Shown here: positions 13,494-19,505 of the stretch, piece by piece | How the letters are laid out: each line of letters starts with the position of its first letter | Numbering within the stretch: the first letter of the stretch is position 1 | Assembly (NCBI GenBank): GCA_043814545.1 | Contig: JBDRJY010000014.1 | Location: 7,617 to 71,616, forward strand | Length of the DNA stretch: 64,000 nucleotides | From: an archaeon | GTDB lineage: Archaea > Nanobdellota > Nanobdellia > SCGC-AAA011-G17 > GW2011-AR17 | Direction of reading: 5' to 3' | Notes under the pieces: generated by a model | Told to the model about the DNA's origin: nothing | Seen by the model: the letters and a program-made list of their open reading frames with translations, nothing else | Databases searched by the model: none | Position numbers and translations under genes: made by a program

Positions 13494-14339
13494 ATGTTAT
13501 ATACTTGGTTATCTTTTGAAAGGCTAATGAAACATAATCTTAAGATAATTACAATCTTATTAGTCTTGTTTTTCTTGGCACAGTTTATTGGTTTGATAGT
13601 AACTTCAGCTTATATGATTAGCCCTGAGTTACCTTTGAACATTGAACGGCCTGAGATGGATGAAGGCACAACTTCAATTTCCTTGTTTATGTTAATAGTT
13701 GTTGTCACTTTGTTAGCAATTTTATTGATTAACATGAAATTTTTCAGGTTTTGGCGGTTATGGTTTTTAGCTAGTGTTTTTTTAACTTTGACAATAAGTT
13801 TTTTCGCTTTCATTAAGAACGAAACAGTTGCAATTGTTATGGCTTTAGTATTAGCTTTATGGAAAGTGTATAGGTCTAATATTATAATTCATAATTTGAC
13901 TGAAGTTTTCATTTATGGTGCGTTAGCAGTAATTTTTGCACCATTATTAAACATATTTTTCGTTGCAATTTTATTGGTAGCAATTTCTGTTTATGATTAT
14001 ATTGCTGTTAGAAAAACTAAACATATGATTAAGTTGGCTAAAGCGCAAAGTCAAGCAAAAGTTTTTGCAGGAATTTTGGTGCCTTATGGTAAAAAATCTG
14101 CGATTTTGGGAGGGGGTGACATTGCATTTCCGTTATTATTTGCTGCAGTGATAATGCAAGATTTTGGTTTGAGCTTATTTAATCCTATTACTTACATTGT
14201 ACCTGTTTGTGTTTCAATTGCGTTAGCGATTTTGTTTTTGAAAGGAGAACCAAAGAAGTTTTACCCGGCAATGCCTTATTTAACTGTAGGATGTTTTGTC
14301 GGTTATGGTTTAGTTTTATTATTTAGCGCAATCTTGTAA
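13494..14339 (+). CDS. Polytopic membrane protein, presenilin/signal-peptide-peptidase-like (A22 intramembrane aspartyl protease family)
   Basis: About 8-9 TM segments. A YD motif (ISVYDYIAV) and a GxGD motif (LGGGDIAFP) are present. A PAL-like motif (YPAMPYL) resembles SPP PALLYLVP. Confidence 0.5.
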   Translation: MLYTWLSFERLMKHNLKIITILLVLFFLAQFIGLIVTSAYMISPELPLNIERPEMDEGTTSISLFMLIVVVTLLAILLINMKFFRFWRLWFLASVFLTLTISFFAFIKNETVAIVMALVLALWKVYRSNIIIHNLTEVFIYGALAVIFAPLLNIFFVAILLVAISVYDYIAVRKTKHMIKLAKAQSQAKVFAGILVPYGKKSAILGGGDIAFPLLFAAVIMQDFGLSLFNPITYIVPVCVSIALAILFLKGEPKKFYPAMPYLTVGCFVGYGLVLLFSAIL

Positions 14340-14572
14340 ATTTTTTTAGCAATTTTTTCTATAAGAACTTCATCTTTACAATTTTTGAAAGTTAAGTCAC
14401 CATACTTTTGCACCATGATTTCAACATTTTCTTCTTTTATGATTAAAGCAACAGGAGTTTCAACAATGATTTCAAAATTAGATTTAATTTTTTTAAAATC
14501 TAGTTTAGTGTTATGTTTAAGTTGAGCTTTGATTGCCCCTTTAGTTTTACACGGTTTAATTTCAAATTCCAT
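14303..14572 (-). CDS. Hypothetical small protein (89 aa)
   Basis: ORF only; no recognisable motif. Confidence 0.25.
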   Translation of the reverse strand: MEFEIKPCKTKGAIKAQLKHNTKLDFKKIKSNFEIIVETPVALIIKEENVEIMVQKYGDLTFKNCKDEVLIEKIAKKIYKIALNNKTKP

Positions 14573-14646
14573 TAAGAGGAATGAAAGTTTTAATCTATTT
14601 AAAATTATCAGAAACCTTTATATAACAACAAACCATATTTTGTAAT

Positions 14647-16578
14647 ATGAAAAAGGGTGTGATTTGGATATTCTTTTTAGTTATATTTTCACAATTAGTA
14701 CTTGCTCTGGACACTAAAACAAAATCTTTAGGTGGTTTTCTTGGTTCTTTGTTTACTGACATAGGTTCTTTGTTTATTGATTTGTTAAATTTACTTTTTG
14801 GTACAAGCGAATATAGTATATTATTTTTGAAATTGATGTTGGTTATAATAATTGCAACAGCGTTGTATCGGCCTGCGTTAAACATTTTTCAGCATCAGAA
14901 GGTTTCACTTTTGATAACAATTCTTATAGGTTTTATTGGAGTAAGGTTCATGCCTGAGTCTACTATTACATTTTTAGGCAGATATATTATGATTGCCGTT
15001 ATTGCAGCGTTACCTTGGTTTCTTGGTAGATTCTTTTTACCGTCGGGCTGGCCGCAAACAATTTTTATAATTGCATCTTATGGAGTTATGGCATATTTTC
15101 TTTTGAACTTTAGTAGTTATTCAGGTTACTTGCCTGAATTGGGAAAAGTAGGTGGTGGCGCAGAAATATTTACTGATTTGGTTTACATGTTTGAACATTA
15201 TGCTTTATTTATTATAATTTTGTTTGTGATTATTGCTGTAATTGCATTATTTATTCGGTTTAGGGATCCTACAAGTCGTCGAAGTTGGTGGCGTCGAAGG
15301 GGAAGTGGTGATGCTGATGGTAACGGTCCGGATGGTGCAGGCTCTGATGGTGCTACTCCAGATGGTAGACCAAGTCGAAGTAGAAGTCGAAGCATTTTAA
15401 GTTACTTGTTTGTTTTAGCATTGGCAGCATTAGGCGCATTCTTTGTTTTTTCAGGTAATTATTATTGGGCTGGTGCAGTCGCATTAGCTTTAGTTGCATA
15501 TTTCCTTTTAACTTCCGGGAGACCATATGCGCAAAGGTCAAGGGCGGGTGCAAGAAGACATTGGTGGAAATGGGTTTTAGGAATTTTGATACTTTTAGGA
15601 GCATATTTTACTGTAGTTCAAGGCCAATATTGGTTAACAGTTGTTTTGCTTACAGTCTTACTTTTGATTTACTGGTTAGGAAAACCTAAACCAGGAGTAC
15701 GCGCTGTAGTTCCTTATAGTTGGGGTCAAAGAATTTGGGCTTTGATTTTTGGTTTTGGTATAGCTTTTGCTTTAACATATTTTGGGATAATTTATTTTGG
15801 ATATTTATATGGAATTTTGGCAGGTGCAGGTTGGGTGTTAATTTTATTTATTTATTATGTTATTAGGGGAAGAACAGGTTTCAGAACAATTACAGCTACG
15901 AGAGCACATCTCCGTACACGTTGGCTATGGTGGATTTTAACACCTTTAACATTAGCAGGTTCTGTTCTTTTAACAATATACATTGGATGGTGGGCTGGCG
16001 CAATTGGTTTAGGACTTTTAATTTTAATTTGGTTATCTACTTCACCTAAAGCAAGTACAGCAAGAGGACATGTTGGTACAGCTGGCACACATTTACGCTC
16101 ACGTTGGCTTTGGTACCTTGCCGGTATTATAACTTTAGTCGCATCTTTTGCAGTAACTTATTACATTGGATGGTGGGCAGGTGCAATTGGTTTAGGACTT
16201 TTAATTTTAATTTGGTTATTTTCTTCATCTAGAACAAGTGCTGGCGCAGTTAGAGGTCATTTCCATGCACGTTGGCTATGGTGGATAGTAGGATTTGTAA
16301 CATTAATTACAGCATTTTCATTGACTTATTTTGTACATTGGACATTTGGTGTTGCCGGTTTAGCTCTTTTGATAGTAATTTGGTTCATGATATCTTCAAG
16401 AGAGGGTGTACGCAGTGCTAGAACTCACAGCCAAGGACATTTATTATTCATTATTTTTGCAATAATTATGATTATTTTAACAGTTATAAATTTCATGGTT
16501 CCTGATCCGATACCTTGGATCGACGAAATATTAATGGTAGGGTTAGACATTTATTTGATAATCAAAGGTATAGACTAA
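14647..16578 (+). CDS. Large polytopic membrane protein built from tandem two-helix Trp-rich repeats with Arg/His-rich loops; function unknown
   Basis: 643 aa and almost entirely hydrophobic. It contains at least 5 consecutive units of about 56-61 aa of the form RxRWLWW...TL...YIGWWAGAIGLGLLILIWL...RGH. A Gly/Asp/Pro/Ser/Arg low-complexity linker (RRSWWRRRGSGDADGNGPDGAGSDGATPDGRPSRSRSRS) is also present. Confidence 0.7.
   Translation: MKKGVIWIFFLVIFSQLVLALDTKTKSLGGFLGSLFTDIGSLFIDLLNLLFGTSEYSILFLKLMLVIIIATALYRPALNIFQHQKVSLLITILIGFIGVRFMPESTITFLGRYIMIAVIAALPWFLGRFFLPSGWPQTIFIIASYGVMAYFLLNFSSYSGYLPELGKVGGGAEIFTDLVYMFEHYALFIIILFVIIAVIALFIRFRDPTSRRSWWRRRGSGDADGNGPDGAGSDGATPDGRPSRSRSRSILSYLFVLALAALGAFFVFSGNYYWAGAVALALVAYFLLTSGRPYAQRSRAGARRHWWKWVLGILILLGAYFTVVQGQYWLTVVLLTVLLLIYWLGKPKPGVRAVVPYSWGQRIWALIFGFGIAFALTYFGIIYFGYLYGILAGAGWVLILFIYYVIRGRTGFRTITATRAHLRTRWLWWILTPLTLAGSVLLTIYIGWWAGAIGLGLLILIWLSTSPKASTARGHVGTAGTHLRSRWLWYLAGIITLVASFAVTYYIGWWAGAIGLGLLILIWLFSSSRTSAGAVRGHFHARWLWWIVGFVTLITAFSLTYFVHWTFGVAGLALLIVIWFMISSREGVRSARTHSQGHLLFIIFAIIMIILTVINFMVPDPIPWIDEILMVGLDIYLIIKGID
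15919..16440 (+). repeat. Intragenic tandem DNA repeat: three units of about 170-180 bp (15919-16101, 16102-16269, 16270-about 16440), each beginning CGTTGGCT(A/T)TGGT
   Basis: Visible by eye: units 1 and 2 share long identical runs (e.g. ...tacattggatggtgggc(a/t)gg(c/t)gcaattggtttaggacttttaattttaatttggtta...). Unit 3 is more divergent. Two further degenerate units lie upstream at the protein level. Confidence 0.65.
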
Positions 16579-16624
16579 ACAATTGATAACAATTATATAG
16601 TAATTCTCTCTTACTTTTTATTTA

Positions 16625-18556
16625 ATGAGCCTTCAGATATTATTAAAAAAAATTCAAGTGCACCACGATAAAGCGGATTTAGATTTGATTCGTAAAGCTT
16701 CTCGCTGGTCGGAAAAATATCATAAAGGTCAAAAGCGTGCATCTGGTGTAAGTTATTATCGGCACCCTTTAGCAGTTGCAAAAATTCTAGCAGATTTAAG
16801 GTTAGGCCCAATCACTATCGCTAGTGCTTTGTTGCATGATTTAGTTGAAGACACTGATGTTACTTTGAAAGATATTCGTAAAGAGTTTGGTGATGAGATA
16901 GGTAATATTATTGAAGGTTTGACAAAGATAGATAAATTAAGTGTTAAAGATCGTACTGAATATCATGCTGAAAGTATTCGTAAAGTAATGCTGGCTTCTG
17001 TTCAAGACATAAGAGTAATTTTCATTAAACTTGCTGATAAGTTACATAATATGCGTACTGTAGATGTTTTCCGTCCAGAAAAACGTAAACGTATTGCTAA
17101 AGAAGTTTTAGAAATTTATGCGCCTATTGCTTACAAGTTAGGTATAGCAACAATAAAATGGGAGCTTGAAGATTTAGCGTTTAGGCAGATTGAGCCAGAG
17201 ATTTATGAAGAACTTGCATTTAAAATTAAAAAAACTTCTAAGCAACGTGAAAAAGATTTACAACATATATCCGAAATTGTTAAAGAACTTTTAGAACAAA
17301 ATGGTATTCAAGTAAAAGTTTGTGGAAGACCAAAACACATTTACAGTATTTACAAAAAAATGTTACGTAAAAATTGTCGATTTTCAGAGATATATGATTT
17401 AACTGCATTACGTATCATAACAAAATCTGTTAAAGACTGTTATACTATTGTGGGTTTGTTACATAATAAATGGCGACCAGTACCAAAAGAGTTTGACGAT
17501 TACATTGCAATGCCTAAACCTAACATGTACCAGTCTTTGCACACTGTTGTTATCATTCCAGACGGTATTCCTGTCGAGATTCAAATTAGGACAACTGAAA
17601 TGGATCGTGTTGCTGAGGAAGGTATAGCTGCTCACTGGCGGTACAAAGGTGTTCATGGCGATGAAGATTTTGACACAAAGTTAAGTTGGATGCGACAAAT
17701 TTTGGACTGGCAACGCGAATCTAAAGACGCTAAAGAATTTATGGAAATGTTGCATATGGATTTTTTTGAAGACGAAATATTTTCTTTTACTCCTCAGGGG
17801 GATGTAGTTTCTTTACCTAAAGGCGCATGTGTTATTGATTTTGCTTATTCAATACATACTAATGTTGGCGATACTGCAATGGGGGGCAAAGTTAACGGAA
17901 AGTTTGTCCCTTTACGTACTGTTTTAAAAAATGGAGATATGGTAGAAGTTGTTACAGCTAAAAACCAAAAACCTTCCCGAGAATGGTTAAAGTTTGCAAA
18001 ATCTTCAAAAGCTAAAACTAAAATTCGACAATCTGTTGAACATTACGGAAAAATACCTGCAAGGGCTTTACAGAAAGTTAAAGAAGAAAAAAAAGAATTA
18101 GCAAAATGGATTATTAAAGTTGAAGGCATACGTGATCCGAACATAAACATTTCTAAATGTTGTTTACCTTTACCTGGCGACAAGATTGTTGGTTATGCTA
18201 CAGCATCTGACAAAGTAGCTATACACAAATTTGATTGTAAAAATATTAATAAAGTTAGTCGCGGTTCACGAAAAAAACCAGTAAAAGTAATTTGGATAGA
18301 CCGGATAGGGTCGGAAGTTAAATTAAAGGTTGACGCTGTTAATAGGGTAGGTTTGTTTGCAGAAATTCTTAATACTTTGGTTGCTAAGAAAACCAAAATT
18401 AAATCTGCTAATGCAAAACTTATTACTGGTAATATTGTAGAATGTTCTATCAACATAGAAATTGAAAGCCTGGGCCATTTACAAGATTTAATTAGAAGGA
18501 TAAATAAAATTAAAGATGTTAAGAAAGTTTTTATTGGAAATTTAATAGAAAAATAA
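16625..18556 (+). CDS. Bifunctional (p)ppGpp synthetase/hydrolase, long RelA/SpoT homolog (HD hydrolase + synthetase + TGS + ACT)
   Basis: HD motif HPLAVAKILADLRLGPITIASALLHDLVEDT. Synthetase core IYSIYKKM...RIITKSVKDCYTIVGLLHNKWRPVPKEFDDYIAMPKPNMYQSLHTVV. TGS region FTPQGDVVSLPKGACVIDFAYSIHTNVG. An ACT-like domain sits at the C-terminus. Confidence 0.85.
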   Translation: MSLQILLKKIQVHHDKADLDLIRKASRWSEKYHKGQKRASGVSYYRHPLAVAKILADLRLGPITIASALLHDLVEDTDVTLKDIRKEFGDEIGNIIEGLTKIDKLSVKDRTEYHAESIRKVMLASVQDIRVIFIKLADKLHNMRTVDVFRPEKRKRIAKEVLEIYAPIAYKLGIATIKWELEDLAFRQIEPEIYEELAFKIKKTSKQREKDLQHISEIVKELLEQNGIQVKVCGRPKHIYSIYKKMLRKNCRFSEIYDLTALRIITKSVKDCYTIVGLLHNKWRPVPKEFDDYIAMPKPNMYQSLHTVVIIPDGIPVEIQIRTTEMDRVAEEGIAAHWRYKGVHGDEDFDTKLSWMRQILDWQRESKDAKEFMEMLHMDFFEDEIFSFTPQGDVVSLPKGACVIDFAYSIHTNVGDTAMGGKVNGKFVPLRTVLKNGDMVEVVTAKNQKPSREWLKFAKSSKAKTKIRQSVEHYGKIPARALQKVKEEKKELAKWIIKVEGIRDPNINISKCCLPLPGDKIVGYATASDKVAIHKFDCKNINKVSRGSRKKPVKVIWIDRIGSEVKLKVDAVNRVGLFAEILNTLVAKKTKIKSANAKLITGNIVECSINIEIESLGHLQDLIRRINKIKDVKKVFIGNLIEK

Positions 18557-18563
18557 AAAAAAA

Positions 18564-19505
18564 TTAAGCTGATAATTCAGCATCAATAATTTCTTGGAAC
18601 GCACTCAACGGTTGTGCACCTACCAACGATATTCCGTTAATGAAAAATGCTGGCGTGCCAGAAACACCGTTACTTTGACCAATACCCATTTGTGCTGAAA
18701 CTGTATCAGCCATAGTATCTTCGTCAAGACAAGTGTTAAACGCTTCAGTGTCTAATCTCAATGCTTCAGCAGAAGATTTCAAACTGTCGACATCCAATGC
18801 ACCTTGGTCAGCAAACAATACATCATGGTATTCCCAGAACATTCCTTGCTCGTTTGCACAAAGTGAAGCTTCAGCAGCTTTCTGCGCATTAGCGTGGAAA
18901 CTTAACGGGAATTGCATGAAGACTACTCCAACTTCGTCATAAGCTTCAAGGACTTCCTCAATTGTTGTTGCACCTCTTGCACAGTATGGACATTCAAAGT
19001 CTGAAAATTCTATAATCAGAACTTCGCCGTCAGGGTTACCTCTTACAGTTAAACCAGTTGTATCAATTTCAACACGTTCAACTTCAGTAGGTTCAGTCTC
19101 GTCAGGGATATTAATGCCATTTGTCGTGTCTAAGACTGTCGGCATAAGCATTTTTCCATCTTTTGTAACATAAGATGTAAACTCTTTGCCACTAACAGTA
19201 ATTTTTAGTTTGTACATTCCGTATTCTTCGCTTACATCATTCAATTCTGCTTCAGCTAATCCACCTAACAAATTAATGTTAATATAATCCATTGTATCTT
19301 CTATAATTTGATCCTGGCTACCACTTGGTAAGGAAAAGGATCCGCCTAACACTACTGAGAAGACCAATAAAACTAATAATACACCTGTAGCAATTTGCCA
19401 TGGTAAAGCGTTTTTTGCAGAACGTAAAAATTTAACTTTATTTTTATGTTCTTTTAGAACTTCGTTTTTATGTTCACTCATATATTTCGCCTCCAATATA
19501 AACAA
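18564..19505 (-). CDS. Membrane-anchored thiol:disulfide oxidoreductase, DsbA-like thioredoxin fold, with N-terminal extracytoplasmic domain
   Basis: N-terminal TM. The FSDFECPYCARG CxxC active site sits in a DsbA-like context. Confidence 0.7.
   Translation of the reverse strand: MFILEAKYMSEHKNEVLKEHKNKVKFLRSAKNALPWQIATGVLLVLLVFSVVLGGSFSLPSGSQDQIIEDTMDYININLLGGLAEAELNDVSEEYGMYKLKITVSGKEFTSYVTKDGKMLMPTVLDTTNGINIPDETEPTEVERVEIDTTGLTVRGNPDGEVLIIEFSDFECPYCARGATTIEEVLEAYDEVGVVFMQFPLSFHANAQKAAEASLCANEQGMFWEYHDVLFADQGALDVDSLKSSAEALRLDTEAFNTCLDEDTMADTVSAQMGIGQSNGVSGTPAFFINGISLVGAQPLSAFQEIIDAELSA

Follow-up and report, generated by a model that had tools for sequence, protein, structure and literature searches.

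An archaeal membrane protein built of tandem helical hairpins belongs to an undescribed family recurrently encoded just upstream of long RelA/SpoT homologs

In the c/K subunits of archaeal A-type ATP synthases a helical hairpin occurs duplicated, triplicated or, in Methanopyrus kandleri, 13-fold within one polypeptide. RelA/SpoT enzymes, in turn, are known from DPANN archaea, where their gene is reported to have been transferred from bacteria (PMC8407392), and a search of the literature for membrane neighbors or partners of archaeal RelA/SpoT returned nothing relevant. Here we describe a locus at which tandem hairpins and a RelA/SpoT homolog are encoded side by side. It lies in a 64,000-nucleotide (nt) stretch of DNA from an uncultivated archaeon (GenBank assembly GCA_043814545.1, contig JBDRJY010000014.1, positions 7,617 to 71,616 of the forward strand; hereafter the window, with a GC content of about 32%), and its principal gene codes for a 643-amino-acid (aa) polytopic membrane protein with six such hairpins. 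It is well supported that the N-terminal domain of this protein defines a previously undescribed archaeal membrane-protein family, of which the window protein is a member.

The protein is identical to the NCBI entry 'MAG: hypothetical protein ABIF40_03775 [archaeon]'. An earlier reading of the bare sequence (the first-pass annotation) had placed a 643-aa polytopic membrane protein at 14647-16578, and both the list of open reading frames (ORFs) and hydropathy agree with it. The predicted topology consists of a signal peptide and 18 membrane helices, distributed over the following features:

14617..14624, plus strand: TATA-box-like element TTTATATA, read from the sequence, its center about 26 nt 5' of the ATG
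14647..16578, plus strand: coding sequence of the 643-aa polytopic membrane protein (ORF list and NCBI protein identity)
14647..14709, plus strand: signal peptide, residues 1-21 (MKKGVIWIFFLVIFSQLVLAL), with a KK n-region, a hydrophobic core and an LA-L/AA end
14710..15261, plus strand: conserved N-terminal domain (N-domain), residues 22-205, an amphipathic helix followed by five membrane helices
15262..15393, plus strand: cytoplasmic linker, residues 206-249, recognized from its sequence, with an Arg-rich RRSWWRRRG, Asp/Gly/Pro/Ser low complexity and RSRSRS
15382..15555, plus strand: hairpin unit 1, residues 246-303, divergent, the counterpart of unit 1 of both orthologs
15556..15717, plus strand: hairpin unit 2, residues 304-357, divergent, matched by a hidden Markov model (HMM) of the core units at an independent E-value of 5.8e-7
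15718..15909, plus strand: hairpin unit 3, residues 358-421, the most divergent, missing in the 484-aa ortholog and missed by the core-unit HMM
15910..16092, plus strand: hairpin unit 4, residues 422-482, core type LRxRWLWW ... YIGWWAGAIGLGLLILIWL
16093..16260, plus strand: hairpin unit 5, residues 483-538, core type
16261..16440, plus strand: hairpin unit 6, residues 539-598, core type, common to all three orthologs
16441..16578, plus strand: C-terminal module, residues 599-643, a membrane helix, PDPIPWIDE and a short helix; DUF6116-like

A search of 5.8 billion clustered proteins recovered just two relatives that share this architecture, P0002 (703 aa, 57% identical) and P0003 (484 aa, 36% identical), and the hairpin-repeat form is confined to these three genomes. 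The synteny of both loci is identical to that of the window locus and the reading frame is intact in all three related archaeal genomes. Against the 703-aa ortholog the ratio of nonsynonymous to synonymous substitution rates (dN/dS) is 0.27 for the N-domain, 0.51 for the hairpin units and 0.04 for the C-terminus, such that the hairpin repeats are the least constrained part and the C-terminal hairpin the most constrained. The three orthologs in identical synteny and a dN/dS below 1 in every module make it well supported that the 643-aa ORF is a real gene under purifying selection. That it might instead be a spurious or decaying ORF, or an artefact of low complexity, is favored by nothing except its repetitive, hydrophobic composition; given the frame preserved in three genomes, the dN/dS below 1 throughout (reaching 0.04 at the C-terminus) and the confident AlphaFold2 model of the N-domain, we give this alternative almost no weight. 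The TTTATATA element points to a promoter dedicated to this gene and to an mRNA with a short leader or none. Scans for sigma-70 promoters and terminators scored at or below shuffle levels, such scans not being applicable to an archaeon.

A phmmer search of 1.84 billion representative proteins yielded 18 matches, namely the protein itself, two that cover only the C-terminal module and 15 that cover only the N-domain, with no match for the repeat region. The 15 homologs (125-807 aa; E 2.4e-9 to 8e-4) align with query residues ~31-231 only and have in common a start that is either a signal peptide or N-out, along with five helices and the FG, [RK]FMPE and LP[YW] motifs; F51, P103 and P123 are invariant in the alignment, no stretch of which is sufficiently conserved to scan metagenomes with. 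In the window protein the extracellular amphipathic helix ends in the FG motif, the other motifs being VRFMPE, ALPWF (LPY in homologs) and EIFTD. The signal peptide is likewise present in the orthologs and in most N-domain homologs, and from its sequence it is probably cleaved in the 643-aa protein. AlphaFold2 models the N-domain confidently (predicted local distance difference test, pLDDT, 82), and this model has no fold match in the PDB; no Pfam domain was found over the N-terminal region in the 15 homologs. A profile HMM of the N-domain recovers the window protein with E 1.3e-63, a circular value as that protein is in the seed alignment. The tails that follow the N-domain in the homologs are soluble and range from 5 to 615 aa, with K+R exceeding D+E in every case; the long ones are Lys/Arg/Glu-rich and coiled-coil-like. 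One carries a zinc ribbon, and the NCBI entry of one homolog reads 'zinc ribbon domain-containing protein [archaeon]'. The family is predicted to be N-out, with five helices followed by a net-basic cytoplasmic region and with its conserved motifs (FG, RFMPE, LPY/W and an acidic loop) exposed on the outer side.

Two local peculiarities of the window protein lie outside the repeats. Its extracellular N-terminal helix contains a 17-aa insertion, residues 28-44 (GGFLGSLFTDIGSLFID; 14728-14778, plus strand), which is missing from both orthologs and holds a 17-nt direct repeat (14743-14759 and 14764-14780), and which is therefore probably a small recent duplication. The linker has a GC content of 0.51-0.53 against about 0.32 elsewhere, in line with the GC-richer Asp/Gly/Pro/Ser/Arg tract that had been annotated there, because the codons for G, R, D, P and A need it; it carries short 15-nt direct repeats (family D4), and in the orthologs it is shorter or missing.

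The genes found next to the N-domain gene, in the window and in the sampled N-domain lineages (those nearest to the query), are arranged as follows:

16625..18556, plus strand: long RelA/SpoT homolog with HD_4, RelA_SpoT, TGS and ACT domains (Pfam), 46 nt downstream of the 643-aa gene
18564..19505, minus strand: membrane-anchored DsbA-like (DsbA/GILT-like) thioredoxin (Pfam; blastp to its counterparts in L001, L002, L007, L009 and L095)
Window, L001 and L002: a single N-domain gene followed 46-130 nt later by a same-strand RelA/SpoT gene, then an opposite-strand DsbA-like gene
L007 and L009: two N-domain paralogs in tandem, with RelA/SpoT following directly after a gap of about 50 nt
L098: N-domain genes 0.3 kb upstream of RelA/SpoT
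L097 and L095: N-domain genes 1.1-1.4 kb upstream of RelA/SpoT, with ThiF in between
L010: N-domain genes 6 kb upstream of RelA/SpoT, past an inserted run of small ORFs

At 8 of 11 distinct loci one or more N-domain genes precede a long RelA/SpoT gene of the same orientation by 0-6 kb. Across lineages the RelA/SpoT proteins are 54-58% identical to the window copy and the N-domains 23-29%, and the outer flanks of the loci differ. As a negative control, 80 metagenome loci recovered with the RelA/SpoT alignment, encoding homologs 36-52% identical to the window copy in their best segment, which we took as bacterial on an assumed origin, were inspected, and none of the 80 contained an N-domain gene. 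The N-domain gene or genes, RelA/SpoT and the DsbA-like gene form a conserved three-gene block; the DsbA/GILT-like gene stands directly after RelA/SpoT, on the opposite strand, in several divergent lineages. In the window RelA/SpoT protein, which is full-length, both the HD and the synthetase motifs appear intact by eye.

Several further features of these neighborhoods were observed. Outside the window clade, which has a single gene, N-domain genes often occur as tandem pairs (L007 790-2196, L009 1187-2334, L095 7428-8924, L098 4590-6503, L097 2-1739), each comprising a short paralog (132-193 aa; signal peptide confirmed in L007 and L009) and a longer, basic-tailed one. In other clades ThiS/SAMP-like and ThiF (E1-like) genes flank the N-domain genes (L095 7162-7353 and 8925-9635; L007 525-716; L009 927-1118; L097 1745-2704; L010 14436-15383), a hint that the conserved neighborhood is wider and takes in a ubiquitin-like modifier system. 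In L010 (9552-14439) and L011 (8034-13758) the N-domain gene is followed by ~6 kb of small ORFs, among them NTP_transf_2/Polbeta pairs and one for a ParE-like toxin; in L010 this run separates the N-domain gene from ThiF and RelA/SpoT, and the L011 locus ends before such genes. This run is probably an inserted toxin-antitoxin or mobile cassette.

What sets the window protein and its two orthologs apart from the rest of the family is the region between the linker and the C-terminal module, where residues 246-598 form six tandem two-helix hairpins of 54-64 aa each. The first-pass annotation had counted at least five units of 56-61 aa; the tandem two-helix organization stands, with the count and size range now revised and units 1-3 turning out to be weakly similar to the others. 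Each unit is a helix-turn-helix in AlphaFold2 secondary structure, with which hydropathy agrees; the modeling suggested in that annotation thus bears out the individual hairpins, and the full-length model itself is unreliable at a pLDDT of 46. Units 4-6 are clearly homologous (63% aa identity between units 4 and 5; alignment z-scores of 14-21 against shuffles), and units 1-3 are only marginally like them: the core-unit HMM matches units 1 and 2 in register at independent E-values of 1e-2 and 6e-7 and does not match unit 3 of the window protein, the weakest of the units, and an HMM made from units 1-2 matches the core units at about 1e-4. A profile-profile comparison of the hairpin unit with the N-domain aligns helix B of the hairpin with helix 5 at an unconvincing 44% probability. 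The region is rich in Trp (7.1%), and RGH, TH and RSR clusters are present in its loops, both as annotated. The accompanying description of near-identical DNA repeats has to be given up, as whole units 4 and 5 are 74%, 4 and 6 67%, and 5 and 6 65% identical in DNA. The longest DNA repeat, spaced at 183 and 168 nt, measures 110 nt and is 81% identical, and Tandem Repeats Finder reported no long-period array in the DNA because the repeats are too diverged. A single 60-nt tract, that of helix B in units 4 and 5, reaches 95% identity (57/60 nt) against 55% for the first helices of the same units, which may be due to strong constraint or to a short gene conversion.

The number of hairpins is 6 in the window protein, 7 in P0002 and 4 in P0003, so that repeat number does vary among related genomes, a point the first-pass annotation had listed among those to check. 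With the window protein labelled A, P0002 B and P0003 C, followed by the unit number, the alignment scores between species (A4-B5 219, A5-B6 219, A6-B7 196, A6-C4 201) exceed those within the window protein (A4-A5 180, A5-A6 152), which indicates positional orthology of the units; the DNA of unit 5 is 92-93% identical to that of its counterpart in the 703-aa ortholog. From these comparisons the unit duplications are older than the separation of the two closest genomes, and unit 6, the last, is older than the divergence of all three. The expansion is accordingly not a recent one, as had been annotated: the units match their positional counterparts in other species better than they match each other.

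The distribution of residues constrains how such an array could work. Residues 250-598 contain 4 Lys, 22 Arg, 9 His, no Asp, a single Glu (in a loop) and 25 Trp. The charged residues belong to the loops that join one hairpin to the next, none being present in the helices, whose only polar side chains are Ser, Thr, Tyr and one His, and the turns within hairpins are 1-4 residues long and made of Tyr, Trp, Gly, Gln or His. Under the positive-inside rule the loops would be cytoplasmic and the turns would barely reach the outside. The array occupies the position that the basic cytoplasmic tail has in other family members, which, together with the charge of the cytoplasmic loops, suggests that it could be the family's basic tail stitched to the membrane. 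It may accordingly be pictured as a scaffold whose five to seven RxRWLWW motifs, of Arg/His-Trp type, would be presented on the inner face of the membrane. Of the three functions offered by the first-pass annotation, a membrane scaffold is the best fit.

The idea to which that annotation gave precedence was a channel or transporter, in which the tandem hairpins would form a ring or bundle. The hairpin helices do carry small-xxx-small motifs (e.g., AGAIGLG) like those by which rotor rings and channels are packed, and there are weak sub-threshold matches to SdpI and holin models. However, a polar pore or transporter is unlikely because the helices are hydrophobic and uncharged, with no Asp and only the one loop Glu over the entire region, the copy number differs (4, 6 and 7) between orthologs, and the units evolve at a dN/dS of about 0.5; furthermore, no transporter or channel family was matched in Pfam, NCBIfam or the PDB. 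The remaining option, that Arg/His-rich cytoplasmic loops bind a metal or an oxyanion or polyanion (phosphate, polyphosphate, nucleotides or RNA), draws on the 9 His and 26 Lys/Arg of the loops against one acidic residue and on recurring RGH...H[LF]RxRW motifs kept between the window protein and the 703-aa ortholog. It too we consider improbable: the loop His are not conserved in the most distant ortholog, being largely missing from units 1-3 of the 484-aa protein, there are no Cys, Asp or Glu ligands, no metal-binding domain was matched, and the excess of Arg and Lys is mostly explained by the positive-inside rule, the loops needing to stay cytoplasmic.

The recurrence of family genes just upstream of long RelA/SpoT in several divergent lineages points to a function for the scaffold, namely as a membrane-anchored partner of RelA/SpoT that might serve as a sensor or docking platform. 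We assign a probability of roughly 0.4 to the explanation as a whole, that is, a duplicated-hairpin membrane scaffold working with RelA/SpoT, which is the best we can offer. Its most specific part, in which the protein is coupled to RelA/SpoT and acts as its sensor or docking platform, is put forward tentatively. It is rather doubtful, though worth stating, that the N-domain proteins, the window protein among them, are in general archaeal-specific membrane partners of a bacterially acquired long RelA/SpoT that replace the ribosome-based control of bacteria; on this reading an outward sensor domain would pass a signal via the basic tail (here the array of Arg/His-Trp loops) to dock or regulate the (p)ppGpp synthetase/hydrolase.

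Several observations weigh against this proposal. The link to RelA/SpoT, drawn from gene neighborhood, is of low confidence, and 3 of the 11 loci have no RelA/SpoT gene, two of these (L013 and L014) being on short contigs. The gene order may simply have been inherited, the lineages perhaps constituting one order-level clade in which ThiS, ThiF and DsbA-like genes are syntenic as well. In the window a TATA-like AATTATATA at 16591-16599 precedes the RelA/SpoT gene, and as both this gene and the 643-aa gene have a TATA-like box about 26-29 nt 5' of the ATG, separate promoters are suggested for the two. The full-length AlphaFold2 model, built on three sequences, has too low a pLDDT (46) for the packing of the hairpins to be read from it. 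Basic WW motifs occur in 6 of 13 long homolog tails against about 2.3 expected from shuffles, a weak lead as the motif was defined after viewing the data.

There is also a structural alternative, in which the protein belongs to the membrane or envelope, has no link to RelA/SpoT and owes its gene order to inheritance. The N-domain motifs would then bind an envelope, S-layer or host-derived component, and the hairpins would do no more than anchor the protein further, make the membrane stiffer or curved, or contact anionic lipids via Arg/Trp interfaces. The predicted outward orientation of the conserved N-domain motifs, the hydrophobic helices with Trp/Tyr belts at both interfaces, and the variable copy number and relaxed selection on the units (dN/dS about 0.5) would all suit such a protein, as would the N-domain gene of L014, which stands beside an S8 peptidase gene with no RelA/SpoT gene, and the synteny of the ThiS, ThiF and DsbA-like genes. 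On the other hand, the succession of N-domain gene and RelA/SpoT gene persists despite differing outer flanks and N-domains that are only ~25% identical. We view the structural alternative as possible, though not probable.

Upstream of the 643-aa gene, at 13494-14339 (plus strand), lies a homolog of presenilin and signal peptide peptidase (SPP; Pfam SPP E 6e-8), in which the YD and GGGD motifs are visible. As each of the three close orthologs has this gene upstream in the same orientation, the 643-aa protein might be conceived as a substrate or partner of this intramembrane protease; but SPP is missing near all of the more distant N-domain genes, and this idea is very improbable. A Lys-rich 89-aa ORF at 14303-14572 (minus strand) converges on the presenilin/SPP gene with a 37-nt overlap at its 3' end. 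It is also called at L001 7657-7926 and L002 7656-7922, has no Pfam family and shows a weak PADLOC match to the CARF_RelE model (E 9e-4).

Searches against described families support the earlier statement that this architecture has none. No above-threshold match was obtained in Pfam or NCBIfam with the whole protein, a single unit, two units or the N-domain, nor with the window protein against PDB sequences; a single unit, in particular, matches no known transporter family. The PADLOC models of anti-phage defense and the PHROGs models of phage proteins likewise gave no match to the membrane protein, and a defense-system or phage reading was dropped on that account. A profile built on the 17 hairpin units found no match in the 5.8-billion-protein collection, a weak negative as the word index was probably limiting.

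The array taken alone is a lineage-restricted curiosity, present in three genomes among several billion searched proteins; it nevertheless provides a clean natural example of how a polytopic membrane protein grows when a hairpin is duplicated, close relatives having 4, 6 and 7 copies. Of greater weight is the broader finding that an undescribed archaeal N-domain family is repeatedly encoded just upstream of long RelA/SpoT. Neither the N-domain family and its position relative to RelA/SpoT nor the DUF6116-like C-terminus had been noted in the first-pass annotation. This conserved membrane neighbor is a concrete candidate for the control of bacterially acquired alarmone enzymes in small-genome archaea. 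The novelty lies in the undescribed family only and not in a demonstrated mechanism.

Compared with the other members of the N-domain family (P0004-P0023), the window protein has a homologous N-terminal region of ~200 residues and, like them, a basic cytoplasmic region after helix 5; they differ from it in having neither hairpin repeats nor a DUF6116-like end, and many are encoded as tandem paralog pairs. That end leads to a second known group. All three orthologs match Pfam DUF6116 (PF19611) at E 1.6e-3 to 3.7e-5 (18.8-24 bits), below the gathering cut-off of 27 bits: 18.8 for the window protein (22.4 for its C-terminal fragment), 19.9 for P0002 and 24.0 for P0003. A genome scan with the ortholog alignment recovered only DUF6116-like bacterial genes, whose products (77-114 aa) have a helix-PDPIPFIDE-helix motif and are 39-58% identical to the window C-terminus. 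The last 45 residues thus share helix-PDPIP[FW]IDE-helix with proteins of Acidobacteriota and Lysobacterales, LTVINFMVPDPIPWIDEILMVGLDIYLI of the window protein aligning with LTVINFFIPDPIPFIDEAILLITSAI of L005 and with similar stretches in L004 and L006, and the C-terminal module can on sequence grounds be called DUF6116-like. The usual form of DUF6116 is, by contrast, a small stand-alone protein (~50-115 aa with basic ends), such as P0009 (49 aa) and the ORFs of 92, 77 and 114 aa in L004, L005 and L006, whereas here it is the end module of 643 aa. A literature search for DUF6116 returned nothing relevant. One stand-alone 49-aa form, 51% identical to the window C-terminus, is encoded at L099 6001-6150 within a one-strand run of ~20 small family-less ORFs, beside Laminin_G_3 proteins of 1092 and 1200 aa, surroundings that look like those of a virus or mobile element.

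For the hairpins themselves two described systems invite comparison. SdpI/YfhL (PF13630) is the best, though weak, Pfam match for units 5 and 6 together (E 0.007, in two stretches), and Trp-containing helical hairpin membrane segments are found in both; however, the score is 16.9 bits against a gathering cut-off of 28.2 and a single unit gives no match, and the similarity is probably compositional. The c/K subunits of the archaeal ATP synthase are the nearer structural analogy, as they share with the window protein the tandem duplication of two-helix hairpins in one polypeptide, Gly/Ala packing motifs and short loops. The two nonetheless differ in several respects: the window hairpins lack the carboxylate in the second helix, their lone Glu being in a loop (SREGV), and ATP-synt_C is not matched even at E up to 10. 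The gene is, moreover, surrounded by SPP, RelA/SpoT and DsbA-like genes instead of ATPase genes, and in proteins of the window type the number of hairpins varies among close relatives.

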